From a virus (Duplodnaviria; Caudoviricetes), in IMG/VR virus record IMGVR_UViG_3300028591_000129, positions 32,001-96,000 of that record: DNA of 64,000 nt. One strand, 5' to 3'. Every line of letters starts with the position of its first letter. Within the stretch, counting starts at the first letter, position 1. A program made the position numbers and the translations under genes. Below the pieces are notes generated by a model, which was not told where the DNA came from, did no database searches, and saw only the letters and a program-made list of their open reading frames with translations. This document shows positions 16,137 through 43,703 of the stretch, piece by piece.

Positions 16137-16618
16137 AACTAATCAAACATAGTATATATCTATTCAAGCGCACTGTCAACATCATTTTTCTCTGCCCGCC
16201 GTCAAAATAATACTCACCTGCGCGGGAAATAACTACACACTCTGCACTAATAAAAATCAAGCCACCACTCAACACCTGCTTGACGAAAACGCCGTTTTTT
16301 CAGGTGGGTGGGGGTATCCGTGCTCCCGTATGCTCCCTTATGCTCCGTATCGCTCCTGCTTCCCTTGCCAACACTCGCTCGGAAGGTTTTCCTATCACAC
16401 GTATATGCCCCGCTCGGAAGGTTCTTGCACGGGAAATTAACTACAATCAATGACATTCAAAAAATTAGCAAGCCCCTCTCCCTCTTGCGGTTTCCATATG
16501 GTTTTCTCGGGGCAGGGGGTGGGGTGCGTGGGGCATAAAATTGCGGGCTGATTTTTGGGTGGGGGTTAAGGTCGTTTCAAGGTGTGGGGGCTGTCCCCCT
16601 ATATGAAAAGAAGACAAT

Positions 16619-16646
16619 TAAAAAGTCCCGCCTATTGGCGGGGCTT
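16619..16646 (-). terminator. Intrinsic terminator after the FtsK-like gene
   Basis: AAGCCCCGCC-AATA-GGCGGGACTT followed by a U-tract. Confidence 0.7.
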
Positions 16647-16671
16647 GTGGCTGTTGGCTGTCGTTGGAAGA

Positions 16672-17352
16672 TTAACGCTTCCAAAAAGCTATAAGCGGTT
16701 CTGTATCTACCTCGGGGAATGTCACGCGCTCGACCTTGCAACCTGTCTTGATTATTGCTTCCCCTATGCTCAACGTTTCCGCGCCTGCAATACCTAAAAT
16801 AACTCTGCTCTCTGATACTGAAGAAACGGGGACGGATACACGTGTATCAAGGTTACACTTCAAACGTGTTGGGATAACCTCTGCATTGATATTCTGTGTT
16901 GCACAGATTAACTGCACCCCTGCCGCACGTGCTATGCGTGCCAAACGCTCTAATAACTCAAAAGCTCTTTTACTTGTAAACGCAATGTCTGCAAGCTCGT
17001 CAACGATTATATAAAGCTTCGTGCCTGTATACTTGCGCGCGCCTGCTTGTTCCATTTCGCGGTAGCGATAGTCTACGAGTGCCAAGCACTTATTAAGCAA
17101 TGCCTCTATGTCCTCGGGCTCTGTCGCGTAGCCTGCGCAATGCGCTGTATGCTTAAAACGGCTCAACTCAACGCGCTTAGGGTCTATCAAAACCATTTGA
17201 CATTCTGCGGGGTTATGAGTGAGAATGTCATATATGATATTCTCAAGAAAAGTTGACTTTCCGCTTCCTGACGCGCCCGCGATTAATGCGTGGTGTGCGC
17301 TTGCTGTGATTGCTGAAAAGACGGGGTTTCTGTTGATTGTCATTGTTGCCAT
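16672..17352 (-). CDS. FtsK/SpoIIIE-family ATPase (motor domain only)
   Basis: H.LIAGASGSGKS, LIDPKRVEL, YIIVDELAD, ARAAGV.LI.ATQ, GAETL motifs; no membrane or gamma domain. Confidence 0.9.
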   Translation of the reverse strand: MATMTINRNPVFSAITASAHHALIAGASGSGKSTFLENIIYDILTHNPAECQMVLIDPKRVELSRFKHTAHCAGYATEPEDIEALLNKCLALVDYRYREMEQAGARKYTGTKLYIIVDELADIAFTSKRAFELLERLARIARAAGVQLICATQNINAEVIPTRLKCNLDTRVSVPVSSVSESRVILGIAGAETLSIGEAIIKTGCKVERVTFPEVDTEPLIAFWKR

Positions 17353-18815
17353 TGCTTACACCCCCTCTCTAATTGCCTTGATAGCCTTAATGTATCCCTC
17401 AACCTGCGAAACTGTCAGATAGTGACCAAAGCGGTTTAACAGCTCTGTTGCCTTGTCTGCGTCCCTAAACAGCTTAATCTGATTGTCGAGTAATACCCTA
17501 ATGTCTGCGGGGTTTATTCTTGTGTCTTTCATAGTGTTTTACCTCTTTGCTTTCTATGAGTTTTCGTGGGGAATTGCTCGGTATCCCCTACTAATAGTAT
17601 ACGCCTCTCTTCCTTATTTGTACATACCACTTTTCTAAACAAAAAGTTCAATATAGCTTAACTTGTATATGTCCCATTAATGGGGCACTTCCGTGCAACG
17701 GTTAGCACTGGCTAACTGATATGTCCTATTATTGGGATACAGAACAAACACGGCAAGCTGTCCCATTATACGGACACACTGTAATTGTCAAAACGACTTG
17801 ACACCCCTGCCCCTCAAAAATATTTTTCTGTCGGAGCTGACCCCCTGCCCTCGCGCGCACGCCTGCACGGGCGCATTCGCACGCTCGGAACTGCTGACCA
17901 AACCACAGCAAAAAGTTCGTTGCGAACTACACACTCCCCGTGACTGCGTTGGACTGCCCGCCTGCTGTCTGTTCTCTGCTGTCGGATATTCACTGCAAAA
18001 TAAAAGACACCTGCCGTGTTAGCAAGTGCCCTTTACTGCCTGTCTATACTGTCCGTATTACGCGTTATATATCGGTAGGCTTTCCTCTGCGATTACGCGA
18101 TACTTGCCGTGTATAATATCCTCTATTGTCTCTATATCGACGCCCCACGCGTCAGCTACGAAACGACGGCAAGTCTTATAGTTATTCTCTAATATCCTGC
18201 ATATAGCGCCATAGTTGTATTCGTCCTCGGGGCGCTGTTCAAGACGTGTCTCCATATCCTGCCACTGCTCGCGAAGTCTGCGAAGCTCGTTATAGATTGC
18301 TGTCTCTGCGTTATTAAGTACGATAATATCTGTATACATAATTATGTCTCCTGTCAATAATGTTGAGTATCGTTTGGCTCGGAATGTCAGCGCGGTCAGA
18401 CCATACGCCAACCGCACCAATATGCCTCGTTGTATCCGTCCACGAAAGCGTCCTCAAGGCTCTCCTCGCCCATTGCAAGCTCGCGCTCTGTAAAGTCGAG
18501 CACTCTCTGCTGAAAAGCAAGCTGTGCCTCATAGTATCTGTCCATTGCTTCCTCGAATGTAACCTGTGCGAATGTAACCTTTGCCATTGTTCTAATCTCC
18601 TTTATATGAGTTTTATGAGTGTTAGCACCTAACGTGCTTGTAAGTATAGTATATACCACATAGGATAAAATGCAATACATTTTTTCACATTTTCCAAAAA
18701 TTCTTTTTACCCGTCCTGACTGCCTACTCTCCAATCAAAACAAAACACCGATAATCTCGGTATCTTCAGGTGTCAGCTACACCTCTTTTCGTTGGTTTGG
18801 TATTTACAACGAGCA

Positions 18816-18870
18816 AAAATGTCAATCTGAAATTGACGTATCTAAAATGTCAATCTGAAATTGACGTATC
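18816..18870. repeat. Tandem 27-bp direct repeat, each copy containing an inverted repeat
   Basis: AAAATGTCAATCTGAAATTGACGTATC x2. Confidence 0.9.
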
Positions 18871-19799
18871 AGTGCGCGTGCCTGCCTGAAGAGTTCACAA
18901 TAGCCACCAACCGCCGACGAAATGCGGAAGCTACACGTCGTGCTGTGCGCACTCGGCTGTCCTGTCCGCCTGTCACTGAAGCATACAAAAAGGGGCGCTG
19001 TACACGCCCCCTGTCTGCTGTCCTGCGCTGTCCTTAATTCAGATACAGCACACGCCCTGTTACTGTCTTTACTCGTGACGGTTCACCGTGGAAATATCCA
19101 ACGACTGCCACATAGGAATTAACGATACCGTTAACTGTGCCCTCTTCGTAGTACTTGATAAGCTCTTCGTACTGTCTGCGCTTTACTTCCTGAAGTTCCA
19201 TTGCCTTGATAATGCTCGTTGTCATATTACTTCTCTCCTCTCTTCATTCTCTCGATAATTTCTGCCTTAACAAGCTCGTAGTCCTCGCACCTGTCCTCGT
19301 CAACGGGATTGAAATTGTTTACGTACCACAGAAAACGCTCCATAAGCTGTTCTGCCGTGTCTTTCTGAATGATTGCCTTATGTGTTGCTCTTCTCTCGTC
19401 TGTCATATGCTTATACCCCCTTTGTATACTCGCGAATTAAATATGCCTTATGTATCTGAATAGCGATACGCTTTGCCTGACGAAGCTGTGCTTCTGTAAG
19501 CTCGCGTCCTGCCTGTACTCTCTTTGCGAAAGAATGAACGTACTCGTATCCAATATATGTGTATACGGGTGCAACGTTATCAGCGGGAACGTTAACGCCT
19601 GCAAGCTCTGCGAGAAGCTCTGCCTCATTGGCGTAGATAGCTGTCCACTTTACGGGCTTCAAGCCCTCGCCATACTGTGCCTCTGTCTCTCTGCAAATTC
19701 TCTGTGCTTCATTAATAGTCATAATCAAATCTCCTGTCTATGAGTTTTCCGAACTGTGATTATAGATTAACATATCTCGTGGTAAATACAATAGGTTTA

Positions 19800-19828
19800 T
19801 GTTACAGTAATGTTACAAACAGATTACA
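19800..19828 (-). promoter_or_regulatory. 11-bp-period direct repeat upstream of a promoter (WalR/OmpR-type box); copies at 21079, 23441, 27377, 28303 (inverted), 28832, 31847
   Basis: TGTTACA-N4-TGTTACA-N4-GATTACA, read as TGTAAC-N5-TGTAAC on the minus strand. Confidence 0.65.
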
Positions 19829-21289
19829 AACGAGAGCAACAGGTTGACAACTACTTCAGAAGTCATTCGTCCTTCGCTCGGTCAGCTACATTCATTTTTG
19901 CCTCGAAGCAGACCTCTCGGCTTTCCTCTACTCGGCTCGGAAAACCTGCAAACCCCTGAAAACACTGCATTTGCAGGCAAATCAGCCCTCAAGTCAGCTC
20001 ACAGGCTGTGCGGAAGCTACACTCACGCCTCGTGCCTGCGATTGGCGCGTACCAAGAATGTCTGCAATAGAAAAACGGGAACTGTGCCCCGCTTCTCCTG
20101 TCGTGCTGTATGCTATGTTCTCGGACTTAACTTCTCATAGCACACGCCCAATTGACGGCGTCTCGTGCCATACCGTATTCCTTGCCTGTCAACCACACGA
20201 TACCTCGTGCGTCTCTGCCCATAAAGACGTCGAGCAAGTCTCCAAGGTCATTAATGAGCTTCTCGTACCTCTCGTCCTCTTCAGCAGTAAGCGTGCCGTT
20301 GAACGCCTTGTCAGAACGCTCATTCATAGCACGATTACGTCTGAATATAATGTCGTGCGCGTGCTTCTCTACGTTGAACGGATACCTCTTCTGTGCCATA
20401 ACTTATACCCCCTTTACAAGCTCGCAATTAGCAACGTTAATCTTACCGCCCTCTACGAAGTAAGCATATGTTGCTACCCAACGTCCATATCTGTCATTGA
20501 AGTCACAAATCTTACGAACTGTACCTATGAAGCCGTGCTCGATTGTTCTGCCCTTAACAACACGGACTGTATCTCCCTCAAGAATGATACCGCGAGAGTG
20601 CAGGAAAGCTCTGCGTGCTTCCTCGTTAATCTCCATATAGTACAGCTCGTCATTATCGTGTGAACCGTCAGCATAATCATAATCTCTAACACAACAGGAA
20701 TTAACCTCGTTAGTTACAGGATTATAGAAAGTTGCTGTAACGAATGTTCCGCCCTCGTGGGATACCTTATAGAACTTATTCTCTAACATTTGCTTTACCC
20801 CCTTATGCACGTTTAACACCGACGACTACTCCGTTTACCTCACGCTCGTCCATAACGTCGTCGTAACAGGACGTTGCAACGGCTACTTCCATAGCGGAAA
20901 CCGTAGCATTTCCACAAATAGCTACTGCGAGCCATCTTTCGACCTCAACCTCTTCTACGTAATTGGATACTGTGTACTTGAACATAATCAAAATCTCCTT
21001 TGCTTGTTATGAGTGTTCTGCACTTCCGTGCTTGTGAGTATAGATTATCACATTTCGTAGTGATTACAATGCCCTTTATGTTACAAATATGTTACAAAAC
21101 TGCACCAAATCGACAGCTCCGAGCGCCATTCAAAAGCTACACTCGCCCCAAAAATCACAGAAAATACCAAAAAGTGCCTCGAAAGCGGGCGGTCAGCTAC
21201 ACCTGTTTTTGCTCCGAGACGAATTGATGACAAACAAAAAGACGGAAGTTGTATCCGCCTCTCTGCATATATAGGAGATTTTAGATTGA

Positions 21290-21915
21290 TTACTCTGACT
21301 TTACTCTCTTCGCTGTTGCCTCTCTGTAATAGTTGTTGATATTGTCCTTGTCGCCTGTCTCAAGTTCGTCAGTGAACGGCATTCCTTTAACGTTTGTTCC
21401 GTTAACTCGTCTGTTGTCTCCGAAGCCCTGCACGGTCAATGTCTTGAACTCGCCTTTCCAATTCTGAACGATAATTCTGTCGCCCTTTTTAAGGTCTGCT
21501 GTCGGTACGTCTTCTGCGTGCCAATATTCTGCACCAATAGGGCGTGCCTGTCTCTCGTCGATAGCCTCAAGCATTTCGTTAAGCTCGTATGTATCCTGCT
21601 CTATTCCACGGAAATACTCGCGCCCTGTGATTTTCCACCCCTCGACAATGTATGTTCCGTTGTCGCCGTTGTCAGTGTCAAGTCTGTCCAATGTGTCGAT
21701 ACCTACGGAAAGTCCGTCGTCTCCGAAGAAGTTAGCGATAACCTGTGCAAGTCTTGCGAAGCCGTAGCAGTCTGTATCAGGTGCACGGAAACCTCTTATC
21801 TCGCAATACTTCAGGAAAGCTTCTACGCTGTCCCTGCCACCATTCCAATGAAGATAGATACCAATACCGTTATTCTCGAAGTTCTCACGTGTTGTTATAA
21901 CTGCTCTGTTGCCCA
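21290..21915 (-). CDS. Hypothetical phage protein (MGNRAVI...IYLHWNGG)
   Basis: Long ORF with SD GAGGAGG. Confidence 0.7.
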
Positions 21916-24374
21916 TTATCTTATACCTCCTCAAAGCTTGCTACTCTTGTTAAGTGGTTGTGATTTCCGCCTGTATACACCGTTGCGTGGTGCTCTTTTG
22001 CGTACTTAATAGCTGTATCCTCTTCCCATACATATGCGTGAACTGTCGCGTCCTTTGAGCTTCCTACCAAGAACCAATAACCATACATATAATAGTTATC
22101 GCGCCAGTCCTCAATGGAAAGATAGTGGTGCTTGTGTGTTACCATTCTGTCTGCTGTACTCATTGATAAAATCTCCTTTTGCTTGTTATGAGTTTTCCAA
22201 ATTGTGATTATACAATAGCAAAGTATTTACCACCTGTCAAGCATTATTTTCACATTTTCAGAAAAATAATTAAAAATACTACCGAACTCAACAAAGACGG
22301 GAGCTACAACTGTTTTAGATTGTTTGGTATTTACTGCTCGGCTCACCTGTCAGACAGTACCAAGGAAACCACTGCAAACTCCAACCACTGCCGACATTCA
22401 GCGCTTCCGAGAAGCTACACACTGTCGGTGGTCGGCGGGCTGTGCGCGTTTTCCTGCGCGACAAAAGGGCGGGATTTGTCGTCCCGTCCCTCTGTCATAA
22501 ATATAGGAGATTTCGCGTAGATTGTCTTAATGAATACGAACTAAAAGCTCCGCTTCAATTGCTGTCAGAATTCTATTCAAGTCCTTGTATCTGTCACTGT
22601 CTTGATGGTGAATGTATTCACGTGACGCGCGGGCTGAATAGTCCCTGTGGTAACTTAACAGGCGGGCGCTGTCAAGCTCTCTGCACTTTGCTGTTATCTC
22701 ATTAATATCAGTCAACATATTTTCACCCCTCTCTTAATTGTAATACCAAACGATATACTTGCTTTCTGTAACACGTCCCTGCGCGTCTCTCGCTTCCCAC
22801 GGTGTATAGTGGGCGGGTTTATGTGTCCTGATATATCTCGTGCAATGCGCGTTAATTCTGATAACCTCTGCGCGTGCCTCTCTTTCCGTGTCCGCGAATT
22901 CAAAAGTAAGTCTGTAACGTCCTCTCATTGTCAATCCTCCTCTACTGCCTTTCTGATAAGCTCCTGCTCTTCAAGCGTGATTAAGCCAAGAAGATACAGA
23001 ATATGTGTTGCACCCTTTGCCTGCTCCTGCACTTTAGTGTCGTCCCCAAGTGCGATACAGTTACGCAAATATCTGCGAAGCTCTCTGTTATCCTTACCAA
23101 GTCTCTCAACTGTCTCAAGCGCCTGTAAATACTCGTTCATTGTGTTTGTTCCTTTCTATGAGTGTTTATGCGATAAGCTCTGCGGGTGTTCCTAACAGCT
23201 CTGCTGTTCTTTCCTTGCTATATGTGAAAAGGTCGAAGAAATCTTCACTTGTGATAGCCTTATCATTAGCGATAGCCTGCAAAATGTCCATTACCTGACA
23301 GTTGCTTGTTGCTACTGCGATTAAAACCTTGTACATTCTTGCCTTTGTCATTTCCCCGTCCTGCCTTTCTATGAGTTTTCCTTTGTTAAGTATAGAATAT
23401 CACTTTCGGTGGTAAATACAATACCCCTTTAGCTGTTTTATGTTACAGTTGTGTTACAAACAGATTACACTGTCAATCTGCTCTTGACACCGCAGGCAAC
23501 AGGTGGCACTGTCAGCTACACCCGTTTTTGCTCTGAAACTGCTCCTCTCCGCCTGCTTCTGTCTACCGTCAGCTAACAGCAAAACGGCGGAAATGCCTGA
23601 TATTACTGCGTTTCAGCCTGTCCGTCAGCCCAACCGAACCACAGCAGACCGAGCTCCTCGCGCGAAGCTACACTTCGTGGGTGCGGAATTCGGGCATACA
23701 AAAAGCGGTCTGTGTGACCGCCTCTGCTTATTCTTCCTCGTCGGGAACTGCTATCTGTACCACTCGACCGTTCCACCAAACCTCTTTGCCTGTGACCTCT
23801 TCAAACATAAACACACAAGTCATAAAACGCTCGTGTACACGGTGCGCAATGTCTGTAAGGGATACTTCACACGCCTCAAGATACTCGCTGTAAAGCTCAT
23901 TCAGATAATCCAAAGACTTCTTCTCGTATTCTGTCAACTCTGCCATACTTGCACCCCCTCACTCTACGACAAACCTAACAACTACTCCGTCGTCCTCGTC
24001 TAACCACTCTTCCACAAAACCGTTATCCTCTCCGTCGTACTGCCAAGAATACGTTGTATCTATGACGTCGTCCTCTCTCCAAAGCTCAATCTGCATATCA
24101 GGTGCACTCTCCATATATTCGCTGTACTTCTCATAAAGACGGATTGCTTCCTTTACAGACTTCGCACGAACTACTTCGTCCATAACCTCGGCAAGTGTCA
24201 TAGTATTTGACGCCTCACCGCAGTACTTGTCCCAAGCTCGCTCTACCATTAAATCGTAATTGTCGTAAACGTACATTTTGAAATCTCCTTTGCTTGTTAT
24301 GAGTGTTTAAACTGTACTTACATTATATCACTTCCAATAGTGAATACAACCCCTAATTTACACTTTTTCCAAAC

Positions 24375-24392
24375 TGTCCCATTAATCGGACT
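24375..24392. promoter_or_regulatory. Palindromic operator-like site TGTCCCAWTAWTSGGACA; copies at 4830, 17670, 17722, 17759, 25518, 26442, 34565, 39707
   Basis: Recurring 18-bp dyad, mostly just upstream of -35 elements. Confidence 0.65.
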
Positions 24393-26011
24393 TTCTCGCG
24401 GAGCTACACCGTGTCGGTCTGTGCGTGGTTGGTCGGGGCTGTCAGAATTCGGGCATATTAAAAGGGCGGTTACTGTCCGCCCCTTATGTTATCAGTAGTG
24501 ATTGTATCCTGCTTCTGTGTGCTCTCTTGCAATCTGTACAACCTTTCTTGGATAATCGCCGTTAGGATAATATCTCTTAACCTGTGCGGGTCTTGCTATG
24601 AGCTTTGTGATAATGTCGTTTGTTGTGTTGTTGTAAACTATGATAATTCCGTTATCTGTCAGCTCGTGTCTCTCTAATCCGTGCCAATGTCCTCTGTCTA
24701 CGTAGAACTTGCCTATAACGTTTCCCTGTCCGAGGTACTTAATGAGCTCTTCGCGGTACTGTCTATCGTTCATATAGTGTCTGCTAACTGCCATTGTCTT
24801 TTCCCCCTTATGAGTGTTTTGAGCGATACCCTGTATCTGATTATAGAATATCACCTTTGGTGGTATTTACAATAGGTAAATCGTAGTGTTCACAATTCGT
24901 TAACATTTGCCAACTCTCCCTGTCACCACGGTGCGAAAAGGTCAGCTACACCTGAATTCTGCTGTGGGTTTGCGGGCATAATAAAACGCCCCTGTTAAGG
25001 GACGTCTTACCTCTGCTGTCAATGTGCCGTGTGCCCTATTATGCTACCCCCTCAAGCTTGATAGTTGCGGACAGTTTGCAAAGGTTGTTATAGTTCTTCT
25101 TGGTTACTGTCTCACCAATTACCTCTGAGCTCTCCTGTATTACTCTATAACAGCCCGACTCCAAAGGATAAAGAGTGTTAACAATATGCACGGGCTTGTG
25201 CACCTCTGTGATTGTGCCGTTCTCTCTGACGTACTCAGAGGCATATCTGATTTTGTGCTGTGTATATGTGCCGTCCTCGTGCTTGATATTCTTGATAAGT
25301 GCCTTTTCGCTCCAAAGTACATAATACTCAACGTCAAATCTGAAAGAGCCGTACTTCTTAGCCTCTGTATCCCACTTAATAGCCTTTTCTCTTGTAATGC
25401 TTGCCATTGTTCTAATCTCCTTTATATGAGTTTTATGAGTGTGTACCTATTGGGTACGATATGAGTATATACCACTATGCAATTCAATGCAAGCCCTTTT
25501 TTGAATATTTTTTCAGGTGTCCCATTATTCGGACAGTTTGCGAAGCTACACCGAGGCGGTTAAAAAGCGGGATTGCTCCCGCCTTGTGGTCACGCCTCTT
25601 CGTGCTCGATAAAGGCTCGAAGAATTGTGTCGCCTGCTACCTCTGCGTTCTGCCTTATCTGCTCGTCTGTAAGCTCGTTGTATTCCATTGACAATCTGAT
25701 AAGCTCAACTGCACGTTCTACCAACTGCTCGTGTGTTGCGTTGCGTGTGTCTGTCATACCTTGCACCCCCTTATGCTGTAAGCTCGTTGTATCTGTTCTT
25801 GAGTACGTCTACGCGGTATCTTGCCTGATTTGCGTAGTCCTCGTCGCCGTAATTGTTGATACGGATATTGTATACCTCGGTGTAATAGCGGATTTCTCGC
25901 CTAATCTCGCGTGTGTCTGTCATAGCATTAACACGGGCATTGATTACTTCTCTATATCCTGCGGGTACATAATAGTTAACGTTCATTTTCTTTCGTCCTT
26001 TCTATGAGTGT

Positions 26012-30059: not shown

Positions 30060-30069
30060 AGAACTTCTC

Positions 30070-34743: not shown

Positions 34744-35301
34744 TTACTCAACCCTCACTGTTATATTTCGCCTGCTTGCTAAATAATCACACATATGTAC
34801 AAACTGCTGTTCTCTTGTAATAGGTTTATCTAATACCACGTCTGACTTCGGTGACGTATTCCACTGTCCCATATGACTTCGGACTAAATGGCATATCGTA
34901 TTCACCTGACTTATCGGTAAGTCTGCTCGGTTAAGCACCATAAACCCCTCGAAGCAATCCGACGCTACGTTCGGGTGGTCAAACACAGTATGTCCTGCGT
35001 CTATGTCACCGTGCTTAAAGGTGTCGTGTATGATACACGCAGTGATTATCTCGTCGTGATAGTTGATATTTAAGTCCTGATACTGCTCAAGCTGAAGTAA
35101 TTCTTCGGCTATCTGAACGACTGCCTTTGTGTGCCTGACCAAGCCACCTACACCCAAGGCATAGGACGGGTGGTATTTCCCTGACGAACTCGCGGGTACG
35201 GTGAAAAAATAGGGTGGCACGCAACTGTCGAGGTAGCGCGCAACCCATAACTTAAGCTTCTCGTCTCGTATCAACTTAACTTCGGCTAACAAATCACTCA
35301 T
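34744..35301 (-). CDS. HD-domain phosphohydrolase
   Basis: PASSSGKYHP...GGLVRHT...IHD..K...SHMG.W...DYLASR. Confidence 0.85.
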   Translation of the reverse strand: MSDLLAEVKLIRDEKLKLWVARYLDSCVPPYFFTVPASSSGKYHPSYALGVGGLVRHTKAVVQIAEELLQLEQYQDLNINYHDEIITACIIHDTFKHGDIDAGHTVFDHPNVASDCFEGFMVLNRADLPISQVNTICHLVRSHMGQWNTSPKSDVVLDKPITREQQFVHMCDYLASRRNITVRVE

Positions 35302-35736
35302 ATGTCTGCAATGACCTTTACTTCGGCTTTCGTGACCATATCAGTCACGCTGAAATACTCCAAACGCCCCGTGTCAAGCCTTACTGCCACGCCTTTATCA
35401 GGGTCAGACTCCTTTGGGTCAAACACTTTCATATACAGTGTGTCAGTCTGATAAAAAGCGTCACCGTATTCCAAGTCACTAAAACAGACAGAACACGCAT
35501 TATAACAGGCAACTTTCATTTCCGCACCACCTTGTTCAAGTATTTGTCTGCCCAATCGTTCATTGCTCCCTGTAATTCAAGCTTTGCTTCCTTATCAAGG
35601 TGTCTGATACGTGGGTTATCAACATAGTACATATCTATATTATCCCAAAAGCTATTTAGACACAATACCGCCTGCCTAAATCCGTTAACGTAATCTTCAC
35701 TGTGCATTGGTAGCTACATTTCCTTTCTGTATTCAC

Positions 35737-36261
35737 TTATGTTCCGATGGACTGTTTGGTCATAATGTACTCATTGGTACGTCTTGTGAGAACTTTCTTA
35801 CAAGAACTCATAAGCTCCTGCGCGTTCTCTACCTTTGACTTCATAGTCTTAAAGGCTCTTGAATAGCAAATACTGACCAACTGCTCCTGCTGTGACGCTA
35901 TCTCCGCTCGGCTGTTCTTATCCTGAACTGTTCCTTTCGTCTCGTCTCGGGCGCTGTTAAATGCTTCCTTATAGACTGCATTGGATATGTCGTCTCTGAT
36001 ACCCAACTGCTCTTGTCCACCGCCTGCCCAATAGATATAGGCGGCGAGGTTCATACAGAAATCTTCAAGCTCTTGGTCTGACGGCGGGTTATTACCGTCC
36101 TTAAGACAATCGGATACGAACTGCACGTAATTATCCAAGTCTCTGATGTACGGCTCGATAATCTCTGCTACGATACTGTCTATCGTCTGTGAGTTAGTCT
36201 CTACGTGAAGTCTTATCTTACTTACTGCCTCGGGGTTAACTGAACTGAATAAAGTACTCAT
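35737..36261 (-). CDS. Helical protein, possible recombination mediator
   Basis: Coiled-coil ORF near the exonuclease gene. Confidence 0.35.
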   Translation of the reverse strand: MSTLFSSVNPEAVSKIRLHVETNSQTIDSIVAEIIEPYIRDLDNYVQFVSDCLKDGNNPPSDQELEDFCMNLAAYIYWAGGGQEQLGIRDDISNAVYKEAFNSARDETKGTVQDKNSRAEIASQQEQLVSICYSRAFKTMKSKVENAQELMSSCKKVLTRRTNEYIMTKQSIGT

Positions 36262-37085
36262 TATTCCACCACCTCTCCTGCTGTATAATGCTCTCTCAAC
36301 ACTCTTCTGAATATCTCATATGCTCCGTCCTCTCCCCACGTTGGTGTGGACTTAATGGCGAATACGATATGCTTAAAATAGCCGTTATATACGTTAAGCA
36401 CCTCTGCAAACGCCTGTGCAACCACCTTTGGGTCTTGTGCAAATGCGCCACAGCCCCAAGCACCAAGCACGATACAATCTGCACCATTATCTACCGCTGA
36501 CAGCACAATCTGCTCCATTCTGCCCTCATACAAGCTCAACGCGAAGTCAGGCTTCAGGGCTTCCTTGGGCGCGGGGCACGTAATAACGTCAAGCTTTCTC
36601 GGTGCAACGTTCTCATAAGAAGTGTCGTCCTTAAACACTGTCACGTCCCTTGCATAGATAACTCTGTTCGTATACAGCTCAAATCCTGTCTCAAGCACAT
36701 TCTTCTTGTTCGGGGCATAGTAATTCTTATCAGCGTCACTTTTGCCCAAAACGGGGTGTAGGTTTGTGCACCGACAGATGTTCTCCTCCTGCGTCTGCGC
36801 ACCGTTCTCAACCCAACCGCCATACTTCATTGCGTCAGCAAAGTTAAGAATTGCTACTCTTTCCTTGTCTGCATAGCTGTATCCTGTATTTACCGTACCG
36901 CCTCTTACAAGTGTTATCGGTACTCCGACGTTCTTCTCGGGCGCTTCAAGGTCGTCATTATAGAACTTAACCTGAACGTCCTTTGGGCTGTACCTTTCCT
37001 CTATCTGCTTCAGAGTGTCCTTAAACACACCGATATTCTTAACCTCGCCTCTTATAATGTTGTCAAAGTATTCCTTCTTCCTCAT
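36261..37085 (-). CDS. Macrodomain ADP-ribose glycohydrolase, bacterial PARG type (TIGR02452/DUF2263-like)
   Basis: LNFA...GG..NGAQTQEE.ICR...DVITCPAP...VLGAWGCGAF...IVFAI. Confidence 0.85.
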   Translation of the reverse strand: MRKKEYFDNIIRGEVKNIGVFKDTLKQIEERYSPKDVQVKFYNDDLEAPEKNVGVPITLVRGGTVNTGYSYADKERVAILNFADAMKYGGWVENGAQTQEENICRCTNLHPVLGKSDADKNYYAPNKKNVLETGFELYTNRVIYARDVTVFKDDTSYENVAPRKLDVITCPAPKEALKPDFALSLYEGRMEQIVLSAVDNGADCIVLGAWGCGAFAQDPKVVAQAFAEVLNVYNGYFKHIVFAIKSTPTWGEDGAYEIFRRVLREHYTAGEVVE

Positions 37086-37905
37086 TCTTTTCCCCCTTGT
37101 TTGTCTTCTCGTACTCCTTACACCTCTCTCTATAACTGCAATACTGACACGTGGACTTAAGCACACCCTTTGGCTTCGGGGGCACTTCATTTTTCTGCAC
37201 GTACCCGTCGCACTTGAGAATGTCACTTATCAGCTTCCTCTTCATTTCCGCAGTCGGCTCGAACATAAAGGACTTCATATCAAGAATATCCCTGTTGATA
37301 TACACGAATATAACTTGGTCGATACCAAACGCTATTGAATATGCTGTTCCCTGTGCATAATGCTTCGGGTCGACACTGTCGCGCTTCTGCCACTTAAAGG
37401 AACTCTCCGTCTTCAGCTCAAGGATATAGTACTTACCCTTGTACTTAATGATACCGTCGCATAAGAAGCTCATATTGTATGTCTTATGAAACAGCTTCGT
37501 CTCCATTCCCTGCTTGGACACCACGTCTATCCTGTCGAGACCTTGGTCTGCCACGAACTGTCCAACGTCGATATACTCGCAGTCGTAGCCGTTCTCTTTC
37601 ATTGCGTCTACGTACCTCTGCGTCCTGTCGTGTATGTCCGACCCGCTGTTGCAGATACCAACGAGTGTGTACGGCGTCATTCCCTCGTCCTGTGGCGCGC
37701 CCGTGACCTGATAATACATATTCCTGATACACGCCATTGACGACGGCTTGTAGCTTCGGCTCGGCTCACGGCTCTCCGCCTGATTGGTCTGTTCGATAGA
37801 CTTCTTCAAGTCCTCAAGGAACTCGTGTTCTATATGACGCTCTTCTCGCGTCTCGTCTGCCTCAACCAAGCGAGCCTTAAGCTCTGCTAAACTTCGTCTG
37901 CTCAT
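37063..37905 (-). CDS. Cas4-like PD-(D/E)xK exonuclease
   Basis: PSS..C.R...G..IH...CDG...ELKT...Q...Y...C..C.Y...C. Confidence 0.8.
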   Translation of the reverse strand: MSRRSLAELKARLVEADETREERHIEHEFLEDLKKSIEQTNQAESREPSRSYKPSSMACIRNMYYQVTGAPQDEGMTPYTLVGICNSGSDIHDRTQRYVDAMKENGYDCEYIDVGQFVADQGLDRIDVVSKQGMETKLFHKTYNMSFLCDGIIKYKGKYYILELKTESSFKWQKRDSVDPKHYAQGTAYSIAFGIDQVIFVYINRDILDMKSFMFEPTAEMKRKLISDILKCDGYVQKNEVPPKPKGVLKSTCQYCSYRERCKEYEKTNKGEKNEEEGIL

Positions 37906-38398
37906 TTTAATTCTTCTCCCCCTATCGGCAGTCCCTCTACGCTGTCCATTATTGCGTTATATATAGTCCGCACAATATGCACGGGGTCTCCGTCGTGTGC
38001 GTATGCCCACGCGTCAATGTCTGCACAAAGTGTTGCACAGAACCACTCAAAGTTATCTATACGCTCCAACGCGGTCTTTGACGCAAGGGCGTACTTCTCG
38101 TATGTCTCGTAACCTGACATTATGCTTCCTCTCCTTTTACTTTACCTGTATATTTTCTGCTTCTTGCAACCAGTTGCTTAAGTTCTTCCAAATCTTCGTT
38201 AACATATGGACTGCCTGTGCACTCTACTAACCTTTTGTCAGATAGCAGTTTATATAACGCACGTGCATTATTCAGCAAGTCAGTCGTATCTGCTTCTATA
38301 TTACACATATGTATAAGTAAACAAACCACCTCTATACATAAGGATACAAGCATAACAATAACCATAGTCTTCTCAAAAACTGTCATAATTCCCTCCTC

Positions 38399-38719
38399 TC
38401 AGTCCGTAGTCCTAAAGAAATATGTAAGGTCGTCACCCTCAAGATTGTCATAGCACCAACCCTGTGCCTCGTAGAACAGGTCAACGTATACCTTGGAATA
38501 CTCGGGGTTCTTCTCTGCCCACTGCCAAGACTTCCAATTAAGTACCATTACAAGCTCTGTAACGTATATAACGTTAGTCTTCCAAGCCTTGAACGCTCTT
38601 CTGTAAGTGTCCTTGATAGCGGAAACACCAAATGCGTCCGCAATTGAGAAGTCCTGCCAAAATGTTGTCTGCTGTGTGTAACCGCAGAATGCTTCTGAGT
38701 CGAATACTGAATAAGTCAT
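38399..38719 (-). CDS. Hypothetical phage protein in an ACTCATA cassette
   Basis: TTFWQDFSIADAFG...TELVMVLNWK; SD after ACTCATA. Confidence 0.65.
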   Translation of the reverse strand: MTYSVFDSEAFCGYTQQTTFWQDFSIADAFGVSAIKDTYRRAFKAWKTNVIYVTELVMVLNWKSWQWAEKNPEYSKVYVDLFYEAQGWCYDNLEGDDLTYFFRTTD

Positions 38720-39161
38720 AATTGATTTCTCCTTTGTATGAGTTTTTGATTTGTAAGCATAGGATAGCATAGTGGTATTCACTTGTCAAGCACCCACACA
38801 AAATTTTACGGCTCACTGCAAGTCGTCAAGAAATATCTGCGCGTTCTCAAAGAAAAAATACGGCTTCCCGTTAGAGTGTTTTATCTTTGCTGTGTGCACC
38901 TTTACCTTTCCATACAGGGCGGGCACGGTAAATATCGCCGTATCCCCCTCTACCGCACGCACGGTCACGTGAGGCATTGTCACTGCCACCCCGAGTGCGG
39001 GCTTATTTATGTACTTCTCTTTCTCTTCTTTAGTCATTATATCCCCCTGTGTTCTGTTCCCACACTACCTGATACCCCGTGGGGCTCTTTCGGCTCGCCT
39101 TTGTGTAGCATTTCTTCGCCCATTTGAGGCTTCCGTCGCTGTTAAGGAACATTACTCCCTA

Positions 39162-39482
39162 TCAGCAAACACCCGTCTTTGCGAAGCAATATCCAACGTG
39201 GTCATAATATGTCCAAGTCCTAAATGCCTCGCACTTTCCCAAGTTCTTAAAGCCACTGCCCTCGGATACATTAAAATCTACTGCGTCCAACAGCTCAATG
39301 TCATATGTTTTCGGCTCACCAAAAACTCTATCCCCTGTATCCTCGGATATATGGCTCTCACGTACTGTAACGGTATTATCCGTACGCGTGACCACCTCGT
39401 AGTTCGCAATACCGCCATACAACATTGTTGTTGCAAGGTGCTGTCCTACCTCAAATCTGAATACGTTTGCTGAATTTTCCAT
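39162..39482 (-). CDS. Hypothetical protein in an ACTCATA cassette
   Basis: ORF track; ACTCATA at 39499. Confidence 0.6.
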   Translation of the reverse strand: MENSANVFRFEVGQHLATTMLYGGIANYEVVTRTDNTVTVRESHISEDTGDRVFGEPKTYDIELLDAVDFNVSEGSGFKNLGKCEAFRTWTYYDHVGYCFAKTGVC

Positions 39483-39742
39483 TTGATTGTCTCCTTTTTA
39501 TGAGTTTTCTTGATTTCCTCTCGATTATAACATAGTAAATAATGTTGTCAAGTGTTTTCTCGGGAATTTTGACCATTTTTGCCGATTTTCCGTATCATAG
39601 TATATAAATATAAGGGCTAAAATAGGGTATAAAAGTCCACCTCAACACCGTTGGTGTAGCTTTTTTAACACATAAAAGCCGTCCCATTTCAGTATATCAA
39701 AACCACTGTACCATTATTCGGGCTATTATACGAACTGTCCTA

Positions 39743-41446
39743 TTAATTACCTTTTCTGTTGCAGTACTTCTCAAGAGCATAACGACAATTATGCACAACA
39801 ACCCCGTTAGACAGTACAAAATTGTGGTAGATTGGCACTTCCAAGTCATATACCGCAGTCCTTTTAGCTGTCTTCGTCACGGACTTAACATACGCGTAGC
39901 CGTCTTCACAAAATAATGCGTCCTCGTGGGTAAGCTCGTCAGCTCTCACGTAACCTCTGTCTGTGGTTAACAGCCTGTGGTTATCAGTACATTCAACTGT
40001 CCTACCGTCCTCAAGTGTAACTCTGTAAATCTCGGCATAATCAAACGTCTTTCTGCAATGACAATAAGGTGTCAAAACAAATCTGTTCCGCTTAATATCA
40101 TACGCGTGAAGATAACCCTCGGTATCCACCATATCCTCGATTTTCTTATTTCCGTCAGCAGTAAATACCTCGGTATCTCCCGTAAGGCACGCGTCGATAC
40201 TGTGGTCGTTACCATCAGGATATTGAGATATAAAGTTGCCGTCTTTGTCTTGTTCATACTCATAATTAGCAAATTCCCAAAACGAATCAGGACAATATTT
40301 CGGGTCAATATAGATATGATTAAGTCCCTGCAACCACTTGATGCCGTAGCGCCTGCTCTCCGCTCCCTTCTGTGCGCCACGAATAAACGCTCCGTATGCT
40401 TTGAAGTCAGCAATGGACTTTGGCTCGGCGCTGTCTGCTATTACCTGCTCTGTCTTATCCACTAAATGTAGCTTCTCATAAAGCTCGTCGAATATCTCGG
40501 CATTACGCTTCTCGTGTGTGCTGTACTCCCTGAAGATATACAAATCAAGCCTTGTCGGGTCAAAATGCATACGGACAAATCGTGTCGGGTCTTTTGCATA
40601 GCCCCAATCTATGCCGTTGTATATATGGTCAAATGTATCTGAACGCCTACAACCATTGTCCATAATCTCGTCGGCGTCGAACTCACATACATTAGGGAAG
40701 ACGTCTCCACCTGTACCGACAGCAATTCCGAGATACTCGTGCGCGTATGCTCGCTCATTTCTCTCTTTCAGTAACTCGGCTTCCTCGAAGAACGGGTATC
40801 CCAACCATTCAGGCGGTACGTCCAAATATGTATTGTGGGTAACGAGAACTCCGTCACGGTCTTTCATATCTTCCGCATACTCGTTCGCCCAATTGTTTCT
40901 GCTTATCGGCGGGTTGAACGTCATAAAGTTCCAAAAGTCTTTTCCGCCTCTCATTGTGGACTGAAGAACCTTACGCATTTCGTTCTCGCCTGCGAATTGG
41001 TCAAGCTCTTCCCACCAAGTAACTCCGATATAGCCTTTCTCTACCTTAATAGACTTGACCTTGTTCGGGTCGTCCATTCCCATAAAGATTATCTTCTGCC
41101 CCGTCGGTCTGTATACTATCGGGTTACTGTATATCTTCGGTATATGAAACAGTGGTGTCAGCCCAAGCTTCTCTATTCCCCACACTACCTGTGAGTACAC
41201 GCTGTTCTGTATGGTAGCTCCGACCTTACGGAAACATACCGCATTGACAAGCGGGTTACCGACAATGAGCAACGGTATCGCTATGCCCCCGTAAAATGAG
41301 GACTTCGTGCTACCTCTTCCGCCCTTACCTATATAATGCGTGTGCCCGTGTGTCAGTATATCCTTAAGTATCGGTTTGTACATCGGTATCACACACTCAT
41401 TAACGGGTATGCTTATCTCCGCGCTCTCTACCTGTCTGCCTGCCAT
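39743..41446 (-). CDS. terL: Terminase large subunit (PBSX/SPP1-like) containing an intein
   Basis: GGRGSTKS Walker A, WWEE, TFNPP, GIDWGY, ADSAEPKSI, DHSIDA...RYA. Confidence 0.93.
   Translation of the reverse strand: MAGRQVESAEISIPVNECVIPMYKPILKDILTHGHTHYIGKGGRGSTKSSFYGGIAIPLLIVGNPLVNAVCFRKVGATIQNSVYSQVVWGIEKLGLTPLFHIPKIYSNPIVYRPTGQKIIFMGMDDPNKVKSIKVEKGYIGVTWWEELDQFAGENEMRKVLQSTMRGGKDFWNFMTFNPPISRNNWANEYAEDMKDRDGVLVTHNTYLDVPPEWLGYPFFEEAELLKERNERAYAHEYLGIAVGTGGDVFPNVCEFDADEIMDNGCRRSDTFDHIYNGIDWGYAKDPTRFVRMHFDPTRLDLYIFREYSTHEKRNAEIFDELYEKLHLVDKTEQVIADSAEPKSIADFKAYGAFIRGAQKGAESRRYGIKWLQGLNHIYIDPKYCPDSFWEFANYEYEQDKDGNFISQYPDGNDHSIDACLTGDTEVFTADGNKKIEDMVDTEGYLHAYDIKRNRFVLTPYCHCRKTFDYAEIYRVTLEDGRTVECTDNHRLLTTDRGYVRADELTHEDALFCEDGYAYVKSVTKTAKRTAVYDLEVPIYHNFVLSNGVVVHNCRYALEKYCNRKGN
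39788..40189 (-). mobile_element. Mini-intein, 134 aa, without homing endonuclease
   Basis: CLTGDT start, block B TDNH, VYDLEV...HNF...VVHN/C end. Confidence 0.92.
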
Positions 41447-41489
41447 ACTCTCCTGACCGTACCTGCCTCTTCCTTATCGTCTCGTATTC

Positions 41490-41652
41490 TCTCCCCGCAG
41501 GGGAAAGTGTGTAGTTTTCCACCATCTGTTATGTACGTTATACCGCCTATAAGTTCCCCTCGCCACGAGTTTGTGTAGTTTTTCAGCTCCTATAAGTGTA
41601 CGTTATACCCCGCAGGAAATCAACCCACGGGGCAATCGGTGTAGTTTTTCAC
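41490..41652. repeat. Three GTGTAGTTTT repeats and two CCCCGCAGG repeats between terS and terL
   Basis: GTGTAGTTTT at about 41509, 41573 and 41639 (~65-bp period). Confidence 0.75.
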
Positions 41653-41654
41653 TG

Positions 41655-42362
41655 TCAATCCGACAGACCCTCTAAATTAATGTCAGGCTGTACTGCTTCC
41701 ACTGAAACCTCTCCGCTACTCGGCATATCCTGACCAAAGTCTAACTTTATCTTCAGTGTCGGCTCTTCATTTCCTGCTAACCTGTTAGGAATATCAATCT
41801 GTCTCTTCGCCAACTCTTGTGCCGCCTTTGTTCTCTCTGACAATGACGCTTCCATATCAAATTGGTCTTTTATCTTGCCCCTCATCACGTCCGTAAAGTA
41901 CTGCATTATCTCTTCTGCACTCGCTATACTCTCATTTTTCGCTTGTTCTAAACGATAATTGATTTCATCAGTGACGTAACCTTTGTTTAGGAGCTTCTGA
42001 GCATACTGTGCAGGAGCTTTGCACTGATAACCTGCGTCTATAACGGACTGTTTACCGTTACCTGTTTCTATATATCTGTCGATAAAAGTAGCTTCTTGAG
42101 GGGTAAGGGCGTGACCGTTATGCGTAGCGAATGATACACGGTTAACTTTAACAGCATTACGTGTATTATAGGATTTCTTCTTACCTGTATCTTGTTCTAC
42201 TACTGCTTCTGATAGGGATTGATTAGCAATATCTATAACGGTATCCTTATCATTAGGAATAGACTTACTGTCAGTATTAATAACAGTAGGATTATCTATA
42301 AGAGTAGGATTAACAGTATCAAGGTTATCAGGAAGATTAGGTGTATTCATTTCTTTTTTCAT
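41655..42362 (-). CDS. terS: Terminase small subunit
   Basis: LTPQE..F.D.YI...N..Q....AGY...ASAEEI..YFT.VMRG...ERTKAA.ELAKR. Confidence 0.85.
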   Translation of the reverse strand: MKKEMNTPNLPDNLDTVNPTLIDNPTVINTDSKSIPNDKDTVIDIANQSLSEAVVEQDTGKKKSYNTRNAVKVNRVSFATHNGHALTPQEATFIDRYIETGNGKQSVIDAGYQCKAPAQYAQKLLNKGYVTDEINYRLEQAKNESIASAEEIMQYFTDVMRGKIKDQFDMEASLSERTKAAQELAKRQIDIPNRLAGNEEPTLKIKLDFGQDMPSSGEVSVEAVQPDINLEGLSD

Positions 42363-42459
42363 TTTCGCCGGCGCGCCCCTTATTCTATGGTAAAAGGGTA
42401 AGTGTGACTGTCTCTTGCCTTACTTACCCTTCTCCGAGTGTGTTTCTTATCCTATTGTA

Positions 42460-42639
42460 TCACTTGTCTGCCGTTTCGTCAGTAACTCGTACTATACCTT
42501 CCTTACGGTCTTCTTCTTCCTCTCCCTCTTCGTATGCTTCATCGGCTACCCTGTTTATCTCGTCTCGCATACTCTCTACTACTTCATCTATGTCCTTGTA
42601 TATCTTCTCAAGGTCAAACTTCTCTTTCTTCTCTGCCAT
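42460..42639 (-). CDS. 59-aa acidic peptide
   Basis: Hand-translated MAEKKEKFDLEKIYKDIDEVVES...EEGEEEED. Confidence 0.55.
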   Translation of the reverse strand: MAEKKEKFDLEKIYKDIDEVVESMRDEINRVADEAYEEGEEEEDRKEGIVRVTDETADK

Positions 42640-42670
42640 CTTTTCGTACCGTCCTTTGCCTTATTTTTCC

Positions 42671-43192
42671 TTACGCCTTGTCAAAGTCGTCTCTTCTTAT
42701 GTTTCTCGTCCTGATGTGTCCGCCGAACCTTCTTCCGCCTCTTCGATTATCCGCCGCTACCATTCGGTCTATCATTTGTCTCTGTATCGTGCTCCTCACT
42801 ATCTCCTCAACAACTCTCCTCTGTGCACTGTTCAGGTTAGGGTTGTTCGCAAGTATTCTCGATATTGCCTGCTGTATCTGCCCGTTCTCTCCCCTTGCTT
42901 CCTCTCTTTGCATCATTGTGTTCAGCTTGGAGATAAAATTGTCCTTTTGTGACTGCGTCGCGCCTGACATTGCGATTGCATATCCTCTTACTGCGTTTGC
43001 TATGTCTATCTTGTCACTGTACTTGTTTAAGCTGTTGAGTGTCGACTCTATTGACGTGAAGTTGTATGGGAAGATTACAAGGGAATTCGCGTCCCTGAAT
43101 TTGTCCCTCAATACCCCTGTCGCGTCCTTAAGGTTTGTTACCTGTGTGCCCGTTATCTGTCCTCGACCTGTGTGTACGCCTACTGCTCCCAT
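42671..43192 (-). CDS. Basic Arg-rich protein with MGAVG N-terminus
   Basis: SD AGGAG before ATG 43192. Confidence 0.6.
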   Translation of the reverse strand: MGAVGVHTGRGQITGTQVTNLKDATGVLRDKFRDANSLVIFPYNFTSIESTLNSLNKYSDKIDIANAVRGYAIAMSGATQSQKDNFISKLNTMMQREEARGENGQIQQAISRILANNPNLNSAQRRVVEEIVRSTIQRQMIDRMVAADNRRGGRRFGGHIRTRNIRRDDFDKA

Positions 43193-43506
43193 TGCTGTAA
43201 ATCTCCTTTGTCTTTCGCCTTTATAGCGTCCCATACCTCGTCTTGAGGTATCTCTTTACCGATTACAGTGTACCACATATCGCGTAAATACTTGACTATA
43301 CGCATCTGTGACGTGCTCTCATACAGCTTCACATTCTTCCAACGCCCGCTCTCTTCGTCATATACCGCCTGCTTAATTGTGTATATCGTCACGGGTCTCT
43401 GCTGTTGCTCCGAATAAAACTGTGAGGTGGAATACATTATCTTCTTCCCACCCCTCGTGTTGAGCGCTTTCTGTAACTTGCGTATAAGTACTGTGTTACT
43501 CGGCAT
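43180..43506 (-). CDS. Hypothetical protein
   Basis: ORF with SD AAGGAG. Confidence 0.6.
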   Translation of the reverse strand: MPSNTVLIRKLQKALNTRGGKKIMYSTSQFYSEQQQRPVTIYTIKQAVYDEESGRWKNVKLYESTSQMRIVKYLRDMWYTVIGKEIPQDEVWDAIKAKDKGDLQQWEQ

Positions 43507-43703
43507 TTGCAGATACTCTCCTTACTTATCAGTATATACAATCTTTGAGGGAATTACAATATTATGTACTCTCTTTGCTACCCCGCTTTTTCAGCGTTTT
43601 TAATTGGTGTAGCTACCGATTTTTAATGGGTTTTGACCGCCCCCTACCCTGTCCTGTCAAAAATACAAGACGGATAAGGGGCAATATGTCAAAAACACAG
43701 GAG

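Follow-up and report, generated by a model that had tools for sequence, protein, structure and literature searches.

A polar octamer that reverses orientation once in a phage genome with genes on one strand: a candidate polar roadblock

Introduction

Polar barriers formed by proteins on DNA have been described in bacterial chromosomes, in a few plasmids, in the spacers of rDNA, and in temperate mycobacteriophages. In Escherichia coli and Bacillus subtilis, opposed groups of polar sites define replication fork traps of independent origin, perhaps derived from plasmids (PMC10331603, PMC4999828). The Cluster A mycobacteriophages carry stoperators as well as operators, as described for L5 gp71 and the TipsytheTRex repressor (PMC9283540). 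Here, we analyzed a window of 64,000 nucleotides, bases 32001 to 96000 of a 104,810-bp viral record (IMG/VR record IMGVR_UViG_3300028591_000129, Caudoviricetes) that CheckV rates as complete, and describe in it a short asymmetric word, the octamer GTGTAGCT, which changes orientation once while the genes around it do not. Positions are those of the window unless marked as genome positions.

We read the octamer as an asymmetric docking site of a sequence-specific DNA-binding protein, of phage or host origin, that would act as a polar roadblock. This reading, which we hold tentatively and at somewhat less than an even chance, accounts for the most facts among those considered here; each rival explains part of the pattern.

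Results

Essentially all genes of the phage lie on the minus strand, as judged from long open reading frames (ORFs) and a codon-usage score, and GTGTAGCT is the octamer as read on that strand. Its plus-strand form, AGCTACAC, occurs in 21 exact copies against 1.88 expected (standard deviation, 1.3; maximum, 5 in 100 shuffles), with 17 copies on the plus strand (18775 to 30413), four on the minus strand (31971 to 43614), and no further exact copy in the 104,810-bp genome outside the window. One-mismatch variants bring the total to about 32 sites. The consensus is R-GTGTAGYT with the core TGTAG; beyond the octamer, conservation extends to a preceding purine and, weakly, to a C two bases after it. 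The flanks drift while the word stays exact.

Read on the gene strand, the sites spell GTGTAGYT below 30.4 kb and its complement above 30.9 kb, and the switch falls between 30413 and 30887. To the left of it, RTGTAGYT is found 21 times in the sense and never in the antisense orientation; to the right, the counts are 1 and 10 (Fisher P = 1.7e-7). Exact copies divide in the same way (17 and 0 on the left, 0 and 4 on the right; Fisher P = 1.7e-4). The array of small genes in the left arm has 22 sense sites and one antisense variant, and 10 of the 11 sites at 30.9 to 43.6 kb are antisense to the unchanged gene strand. The two groups converge on one point, and site density rises toward it. The two exceptions are GTGTAGCC at 27463–27470 (plus strand), which stands in the opposite orientation in the left arm 17 nt after a terminator, and ATGTAGCT at 35712–35719 (minus strand), which stands in the sense orientation in the right arm.

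A sequence-only reading of the window had reported the 17 and four exact copies, the RTGTAGTT variants (30887, 33031, 41509, 41573, and 41639), both exceptions, the orientation bias, and the single orientation of the genes, and all of these held up in the full count. Since the genes lie essentially all on the minus strand, the flip is not an inversion of genes. The same reading had stated that the spacing persists through holA and recU; the sites indeed recur every 0.5 to 1.1 kb through the holA-like gene for a clamp-loader delta subunit (29136–30059, minus strand), an ORF without known function, and the gene for a RecU-like Holliday-junction resolvase (31868–32398, minus strand). Its view of a directional signal independent of gene orientation also agrees with our results, in that the word flips with the genes constant, its core is avoided elsewhere, and a change point in synonymous GC skew lies no more than about 2 kb from the flip.

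The interval between the two arms (30414–30886) holds a purine-rich tract and has no evident palindrome, dif-like palindrome, or iterons. We rejected the tract as a mark of the switch because it ranks in the top few genome-wide but is not unique. The innermost sites share extended inverted matches, 29906–29918 with 31967–31979 (13 of 13 positions) and 30399–30415 with 32622–32638 (16 of 17). An inverted duplication or invertible segment around the switch was rejected, as these matches are interleaved rather than mirrored and no recombinase was found. A second polarity switch near genome position 17.9 kb would rest on eight non-motif words and is not claimed.

The core of the octamer is purged from the rest of the genome. 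Outside genome positions 48 to 76 kb, the gene strand carries four copies of TGTAG, against 36 expected from a Markov model and 98 from base composition, and six of CTACA, against 49 and 62, so that the core is depleted about ninefold on both strands outside the site region. Among all 1,024 pentamers, TGTAG and CTACA rank ninth and tenth in avoidance and are the sole non-palindromic word in the top 12; all the others there are palindromic restriction-type sites. Even within predicted genes, where GTA is the commonest valine codon, TGTAG is found nine times (40 expected) and CTACA 11 times (53 expected). The genome has 53 TGTAG in all; the stretch from 16.2 to 43.6 kb accounts for 36 of them, and almost every one of these has an octamer-like context.

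Among restriction-type words, GATC, GGCC, and CTAG have no copy outside genome positions 48 to 76 kb, CATG has one, and CCGG has five; GGWCC, GCWGC, CTNAG, GANTC, CTRYAG, GGNNCC, GATATC, and CTCGAG are also near absent there. The set of avoided words differs in relatives, for example GGATG/CATCC and GAWTC (GAATC, GATTC) in the relative G406, which is described below.

Strand composition changes close to the polarity switch. For GC skew at four-fold sites on the gene strand (GC4 skew), the best split separates values of about +0.01 on its left from +0.24 on its right. Broken down by arc, the skew is about +0.03 at genome positions 0 to 48 kb and −0.03 within the array, and between genome position 62.6 kb and the end it is +0.17 to +0.26 (8-kb bins up to +0.38). 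A single change point fits best at 28759–29136 (2-lnL range, 27.3 to 29.1 kb; permutation P < 0.0005), and the raw cumulative skew peaks at 29.0 kb. If leading strands are G-rich, we infer from the skew that replication forks would converge near the polarity switch, moving with transcription on the right arm and against it on the left arm.

Most of the left arm is an array of about 12 small-gene cassettes (17356–29135, minus strand), each with one to four ORFs without family matches. A cassette is made up of a terminator, one or more sites, operator-like repeats, a sigma70-like promoter, a leader with the word AAACTCATA, a Shine-Dalgarno sequence, and the ORFs. In gene orientation, each spacer runs from the stop codon through a G+C-rich hairpin with a T run and 10 to 90 nt of often G+C-rich DNA to GTGTAGCT, which in several spacers is followed by a second copy of the octamer 38 to 154 nt beyond the first. 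Two TGTAACA direct repeats or the palindrome GTCCNATTAATNGGAC come next, then the −35/−10 pair, and the spacer ends with the conserved AAACTCATA leader, AAGGAGAT, and the start codon.

The sites occupy a defined place in these spacers. Spacers account for only 30% of the stretch but hold 15 of the 17 exact sense copies (P = 1e-6), and they also hold four of the five left-arm variants. A predicted terminator lies within 90 nt upstream of 13 of the 19 left-arm spacer sites, compared with none of the eight in the right arm (P = 0.002). Among the exact left-arm copies, all on the minus strand, the terminator lies 50 nt before 18929–18936, 48 nt before 20015–20022, 89 nt before 21135–21142, 29 nt before 21195–21202, 42 nt before 22413–22420, 26 nt before 23666–23673, 50 nt before 24402–24409, 31 nt before 24944–24951, 10 nt before 25544–25551, 69 nt before 26469–26476, 31 nt before 26507–26514, and 38 nt before 28351–28358. 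The copies at 18775–18782 and 23514–23521 are each the second site of their spacer (the latter 152 nt past the first), and the copy at 28917–28924 lies in the spacer downstream of holA. The remaining two are within coding sequence, at 29907–29914 in holA and at 30406–30413, the innermost left-arm site, in a 221-amino-acid (aa) ORF; these are the copies with the inverted matches. The variants, on the same strand, are GTGTAGTT at 16231–16238, the outermost left-arm site, in the spacer downstream of the FtsK-like gene; GTGTAGTT at 17925–17932, 69 nt after a terminator; ATGTAGCT at 19884–19891 and TTGTAGCT at 22302–22309, each a second site in its spacer; and ATGTAGCT at 29544–29551, within holA. 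The sequence-only reading had set the octamer apart from transcription signals, which does not fit the array, where the sites are tied to the ends of transcription units in the order terminator, site, promoter.

This arrangement could suggest regulatory or recombination punctuation, that is, the operator of a regulator or the core of a module for cassette shuffling like the promoter early stem-loop (PeSL) cassettes of T4-type phages, with no polar role and with the reversed copies as a minor separate use. The array does have the PeSL layout (PMC2839356, PMC4122927), distant relatives carry the core within promoters, and the phage has other operator-like motifs (paired TGTAACA and GTCCCATTAATGGGAC) and an XRE-type helix-turn-helix (HTH) protein. 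However, the sites stand anywhere from about 60 to 170 nt from the promoter with no −10/−35 partner, a ninefold purge from coding DNA is unusual for the sites of a regulator, recombination cores would retain their flanks, which the octamer does not, and neither the flip (P about 1e-7) nor the presence of copies in holA and recU is explained. We consider such punctuation unlikely. A promoter element was rejected because no −10 or −35 partner stands at a fixed distance and the downstream DNA is G+C-rich. An origin in duplicated spacer modules was rejected as well, as blastn similarity between spacers covers promoters and leaders and not the octamer flanks. No inverse-core partner was found beside the sites.

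Further motifs recur in the array spacers. The AAACTCATA(A/G) leader stands 3 to 18 nt before the Shine-Dalgarno sequence in more than 20 transcription units genome-wide, just downstream of sigma70-like promoters, with 26 copies on the gene strand and two on the other (8431–65225 and beyond); it may be a signal for 5′-UTR processing, stability, or translation. Pairs of TGTAACA direct repeats, 4 to 6 nt apart, lie directly upstream of weak −35 boxes (TTGTAT type) in seven cassette promoters (19817, 21096, 23458, 27394, 28849/28860, and 31864) and look like activator or repressor sites. The palindrome GTCCNATTAATNGGAC stands beside the −35 boxes of several promoters (17671, 17723, 24376–24391, 25519, 26458, 34.5 kb, 39708, and 65.2 kb), with three copies upstream of the FtsK-like operon, and looks like the operator of a dimeric repressor.

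In the right arm, no terminator precedes any of the eight spacer sites, and some sites lie in genes or within operons. All of the following are on the plus strand. The first site, ATGTAGTT at 30887–30894, is in an intra-operon spacer without terminator or promoter. Next come GTGTAGCT at 31971–31978 within the recU-like gene, GTGTAGCT at 32624–32631 within a small ORF upstream of recU or at the end of that ORF, ATGTAGTT at 33031–33038 in another spacer without terminator or promoter, and GTGTAGCT at 39654–39661 in the spacer after terL. The outermost site, GTGTAGCT at 43607–43614, lies in the spacer after the sliding-clamp gene. Between them, three phased copies of GTGTAGTT (41509–41516, 41573–41580, and 41639–41646), 64 and 66 bp apart, fill the 208-nt spacer (41447–41654) between the small terminase gene (terS, Terminase_2; 41655–42362) and the large terminase gene (terL; 39743–41446), both on the minus strand. 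The terL product has a C-terminal intein (Intein_splicing and PT-HINT matches at residues ~467 to 553).

The three units of this spacer start with GAAAAACTACAC; GGTATAACGTACA is common to units 1 and 2, and a CCCCG...CGGGG hairpin is present in unit 3 and, in imperfect form, in unit 1. The spacer is a candidate pac or TerS-binding region. More broadly, RTGTAGYT could be a point of programmed nicking, cleavage, or docking by a phage nuclease or the terminase, comparable to the fixed single-strand nicks of T5 and phiKMV-like phages or to pac repeats, with cuts in genes being harmful. The exact recognition word, its strong avoidance on both strands elsewhere, the three phased copies at a typical pac place, and the homing-type nucleases (NUMOD3) and Cas4-like exonuclease of the phage favor this explanation. 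Yet 17 dispersed cut or pac sites in 12 kb are without precedent or obvious use, a strand-specific nick would leave the avoidance of both orientations unexplained, and the three copies may stem from one local duplication, their units not being scored as a tandem repeat by TRF. Nicking or terminase docking as the function of the octamer seems to us distinctly improbable.

Beyond the left end of the array is a gene for an FtsK/SpoIIIE-family ATPase (16672–17352, minus strand), a 226-aa core without the gamma domain. The octamers might orient this ATPase toward or away from the switch, as the KOPS, SRS, and TRS octamers do for their translocases. Such a role would suit an 8-bp polar word in two converging groups with density rising toward the switch, the location of the gene right beside the array, and an ATPase operon flanked by the outermost sites. 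Like KOPS, AGCTACAC would lie on the inferred leading strand and point to the skew switch, and some small terminases of phages are known to have an FtsK gamma domain (PMC8190038). Against it, no FtsK gamma domain was matched in the genome at E ≤ 10, and neither a 58-aa ORF next to the ATPase gene nor the N-terminus of TerS has a family match. KOPS-type words are harmless in genes, yet here the permitted orientation is depleted three- to ninefold in genes and spacers are preferred. Finally, the relative G001 keeps the motif, and no homologue of the ATPase was seen in its contig, which is 73% complete. We regard the guide function as quite improbable.

The portal and other proteins point to an affiliation with Clostridia phages. 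Relatives occur in rumen and gut metagenome-assembled genome (MAG) bins of Lachnospiraceae, Ruminococcaceae, and Fimenecus. No close relative was found by DNA pattern in the phage collection or viral contigs. The closest HolA relatives are 72 to 76% identical, one of them on a 110-kb contig, and the exact octamer is absent from 56 related viral loci whose HolA is at most 58% identical. In G001 (HolA 58% identical), the cassettes follow the same grammar; GTCGTGTAGG or its complement stands 8 to 10 nt after terminators, and TGTAG is found within 60 nt after 10 of 15 terminators. In G406, a complete relative of 70 kb, GTGTAG occurs 29 times in the antisense and twice in the sense orientation, and TGTAG is depleted in the sense orientation (7 versus 36 expected) and not in the antisense (80 versus 60 expected). 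All seven sense copies in G406 (L074 to L077) are within about 7 kb of the contig ends (gene-orientation positions 4389 to 7408 and 63219 to 68537), leaving zero in the central 56 kb. Locus L017 (G407) avoids the sense strand as G406 does. In four distant relatives (L020, L023, L042, and L060), RTGTAG is fused to the TATAAT −10 box of promoters, with no avoidance of the core.

The sense-strand-only avoidance in G406 and L017 raises the possibility of a signal in RNA, with UGUAG as the site at which a ribonuclease or RNA-binding protein of the phage or host cleaves or binds; mRNAs would avoid the word for this reason, and its copies after terminators would serve to destroy RNA from read-through. 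The sites just downstream of terminator hairpins in the phage and in G001 would agree with this, as would a Ro60-like RNA-binding protein encoded by the phage. But the antisense orientation is equally depleted in the phage, and ten antisense sites are enriched at 30.9 to 43.6 kb, where plus-strand genes are absent. No conserved RNA hairpin surrounds the word, the folds differing between sites, and a tRNA and Rfam scan of the phage gave a tRNA-Gln (49490–49564) as its sole match and none at the octamer sites. A signal at the RNA level is very unlikely.

We compared the octamer with candidate hosts, represented by four MAGs carrying relatives and 401 Clostridia genomes, a sample outside which the host of the phage itself may lie. 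In both sets, GTGTAGCT is at or below chance density and therefore, within that sample, is not a host word of the Chi or KOPS type. The sequence-only reading had listed a Chi-like or translocase site among its options; these 405 genomes and the missing gamma domain count against that option.

A related idea is that host defense shaped the orientation of the sites, with TGTAG being, or being part of, the asymmetric target of a Chi-reading nuclease of the host or of a Type III-like restriction enzyme that requires sites in inverse orientation. Selection would have removed most copies and kept the others in an arrangement that is tail-to-tail and not cleavable, or that protects ends. The extreme avoidance of restriction-type words, among which TGTAG/CTACA stands out as non-palindromic, is in keeping with this, and the one-orientation bias in G406 resembles the EcoP15I sites of T7 (PMC3874151). 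Moreover, GTGTAGCT points outward on both arms, the geometry needed for Chi to face nucleases from DNA ends. Avoidance, however, cannot produce 17 exact 8-mers at matching spacer positions, the octamer is at chance density in the candidate hosts, and the exceptions at 27463 and 35712 would form head-to-head pairs. We judge an origin in defense to be highly unlikely.

One protein of the phage was considered as a candidate reader. It is an early XRE-type HTH protein of 199 aa (59753–60352, minus strand) that ends in two helical repeats of the type YG(K/A)VSYD. Its family comprises about 270 proteins, some with three to five tandem HTH modules, and includes homologues in G001, G406, and locus L070. 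A structure search returned generic XRE matches only, and the C-terminal domain had no match in the PDB. The protein is a possible reader of some phage DNA motif, and nothing ties it to the octamer.

The gene order of the phage begins with small early genes, followed by a replication block of primase, split family-A polymerase, sliding clamp, terS, terL with its intein, Cas4-like nuclease, recU-like resolvase, and holA. The 12-kb array of small unknown genes comes after holA, and past it are the genes for the FtsK-family ATPase, the Ro60-like protein, and the head and tail. An ORF cut by the contig end (genome position 1) starts with a normal promoter, leader, and start codon; therefore, the map is probably circularly permuted or a broken circle and not a molecule with natural ends. 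Six-frame searches of the phage gave no match to the tyrosine or serine recombinases or the Y1 transposase (PF00589, PF00239, and PF01797), and because it has no integrase, the phage is probably virulent. The early region also has a radical-SAM gene and an unannotated PP-loop (SGGKDS) ORF (65288–67468), and a glucosyltransferase-like gene (44811–45725) stands apart from these, beside the polymerase. Together, the three genes hint at a DNA or nucleotide modification pathway.

Discussion

Three features suggest that the octamer is a DNA site that is read by a protein and is harmful within transcription units: the word is exact while its flanks drift, its core is purged from both strands, and on one arm only it is confined to untranscribed DNA. 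In the polar roadblock that we propose, the bound octamer would halt DNA-tracking enzymes from one side only. Left-arm sites would present their blocking face to RNA polymerase and would insulate the cassettes from read-through, as stoperators do, so such sites would have to lie outside genes, behind terminators. Right-arm sites would present the permissive face and so could occupy genes and operons. Together, the two groups would admit replication forks toward about 30.6 kb and not away from it, like a Tus or RTP fork trap. A stray site elsewhere would stall transcription or replication, and this would explain the avoidance of the core.

Several points weigh against this proposal. That the sites block anything is pure inference, and three left-arm sites (29544, 29907, and 30406) lie within genes in the supposedly blocking orientation. 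The best estimate of the skew change point is 1.3 to 3 kb away from the flip, and the change in skew could reflect module history or expression rather than replication. In relatives, G001 has both orientations after its terminators and no clean flip, and G406 shows no coupling of GC4 skew with word polarity. Six-frame searches of the phage at E ≤ 10 matched none of FtsK gamma (PF09397), Tus (PF05472), or RTP (PF02334), and no Cluster A-like repressor was found in a scan that did not cover every ORF. Lastly, our gene calls come from a home-made ORF caller based on codon scores.

The most specific form of the polar roadblock would be a fork trap run by the phage itself. About 30 Ter-like one-way sites and a new reader protein would make forks meet near 30.6 kb in a virulent Firmicute phage, the sites would, on the arm where forks run head-on into transcription, also serve as its insulators behind each terminator, and related phages would police the same 5-bp core. 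We think this version rather unlikely. We know of no fork trap in a phage, a point for which the literature was not searched. Mohanty, Sahoo, and Bastia reportedly showed in 1996 that Ter complexes halt RNA polymerase in a polar way and that transcription inactivates them, which would fit the placement of the octamer behind terminators.

Whatever the mechanism, the exact word, its placement in spacers, the single flip, and the genome-wide avoidance form an unusually clean signature of a cis signal. If the proposal is true, a barrier system known so far from the settings named above would exist in a large Firmicute gut phage and be built on a single 8-bp word, and GTGTAGCT would be a handle for isolating its reader protein. 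It would also open two questions to tests: how replication coexists with heavy transcription of the accessory cassettes in a phage whose genes all share one strand, and what makes related phages shun TGTAG.

Compared with the described systems, the octamer shares some defining traits with several of them. The KOPS, SRS, and TRS octamers (read by FtsK, SpoIIIE, and Streptomyces TraB) are also skewed 8-bp polar words that converge on a target, and the FtsK-family ATPase gene of the phage adjoins the array (PMC3384302, PMC8190038). The phage differs in that six-frame searches found no winged-helix gamma reader (PF09397), its sites are mostly intergenic with both orientations avoided in genes, the system spans only 27 kb, and candidate hosts show no enrichment of the word. 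That last result, from the four MAGs and 401 Clostridia genomes, also separates it from host Chi, which is over-represented in the host chromosome. Integron attC, shufflon sfx, and REP-RAYT elements have a cognate recombinase or Y1 transposase, and none was found in the phage. The EcoP15I sites of T7, subject to the strand bias of Type III systems, are short asymmetric words in a single orientation over long stretches with genes on one strand (PMC3874151), a pattern seen most clearly in G406 (29 versus 2). In the phage, by contrast, exact copies of the 8-mer are in positive excess at defined places in the spacers, and the word flips once.

PeSL cassettes of T4-type phages combine a terminator and an early promoter to bound small, variable ORFan genes in a plastic region, and the array has these traits. 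PeSLs lack both an additional invariant octamer with polarity between terminator and promoter and the avoidance of its core across the genome (PMC2839356, PMC4122927), so the likeness describes the array and not the octamer.

Tus-Ter, in E. coli and R6K-type plasmids, and RTP-Ter, in B. subtilis, have, as the phage does, non-palindromic polar sites whose two opposed groups flank a single point (PMC10331603, PMC4999828), which in the phage roughly coincides with the switch in strand skew. Opposed groups are seen here, and a terminus is suggested only by the GC4-skew change at 27.3 to 29.1 kb. The phage differs by its roughly 30 sites in 27 kb, versus 10 in 2 Mb in E. coli, and by having no match to Tus or RTP.

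Cluster A mycobacteriophages have more than 20 stoperator copies, which are short asymmetric sites that occupy narrow gaps between genes and, in some members, promoters (PMC9283540), and many asymmetric sites in such spaces are likewise found here. Their orientation is tied to the direction of transcription, and a bound stoperator halts elongating RNA polymerase in one orientation (PMC9283540); in the phage, orientation does not follow transcription genome-wide, as 10 of the 11 sites at 30.9 to 43.6 kb are antisense, and blocking is our interpretation. Stoperators are 13 bp long, versus 8 bp here, and the phage further differs in its Firmicute host, its probably virulent lifestyle, the purge of the core from genes, and the inversion of one third of the sites although the genes are all on one strand. 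Cluster A stoperators serve a monomeric immunity repressor with HTH and Stoperator domains in temperate phages; for the phage, a single HTH candidate was tested, and no integrase or resolvase was found. Taken across relatives, the sites after terminators in G001 and the promoter sites in L020, L023, L042, and L060 match the operator-plus-stoperator layout of the Cluster A mycobacteriophages (PMC9283540).

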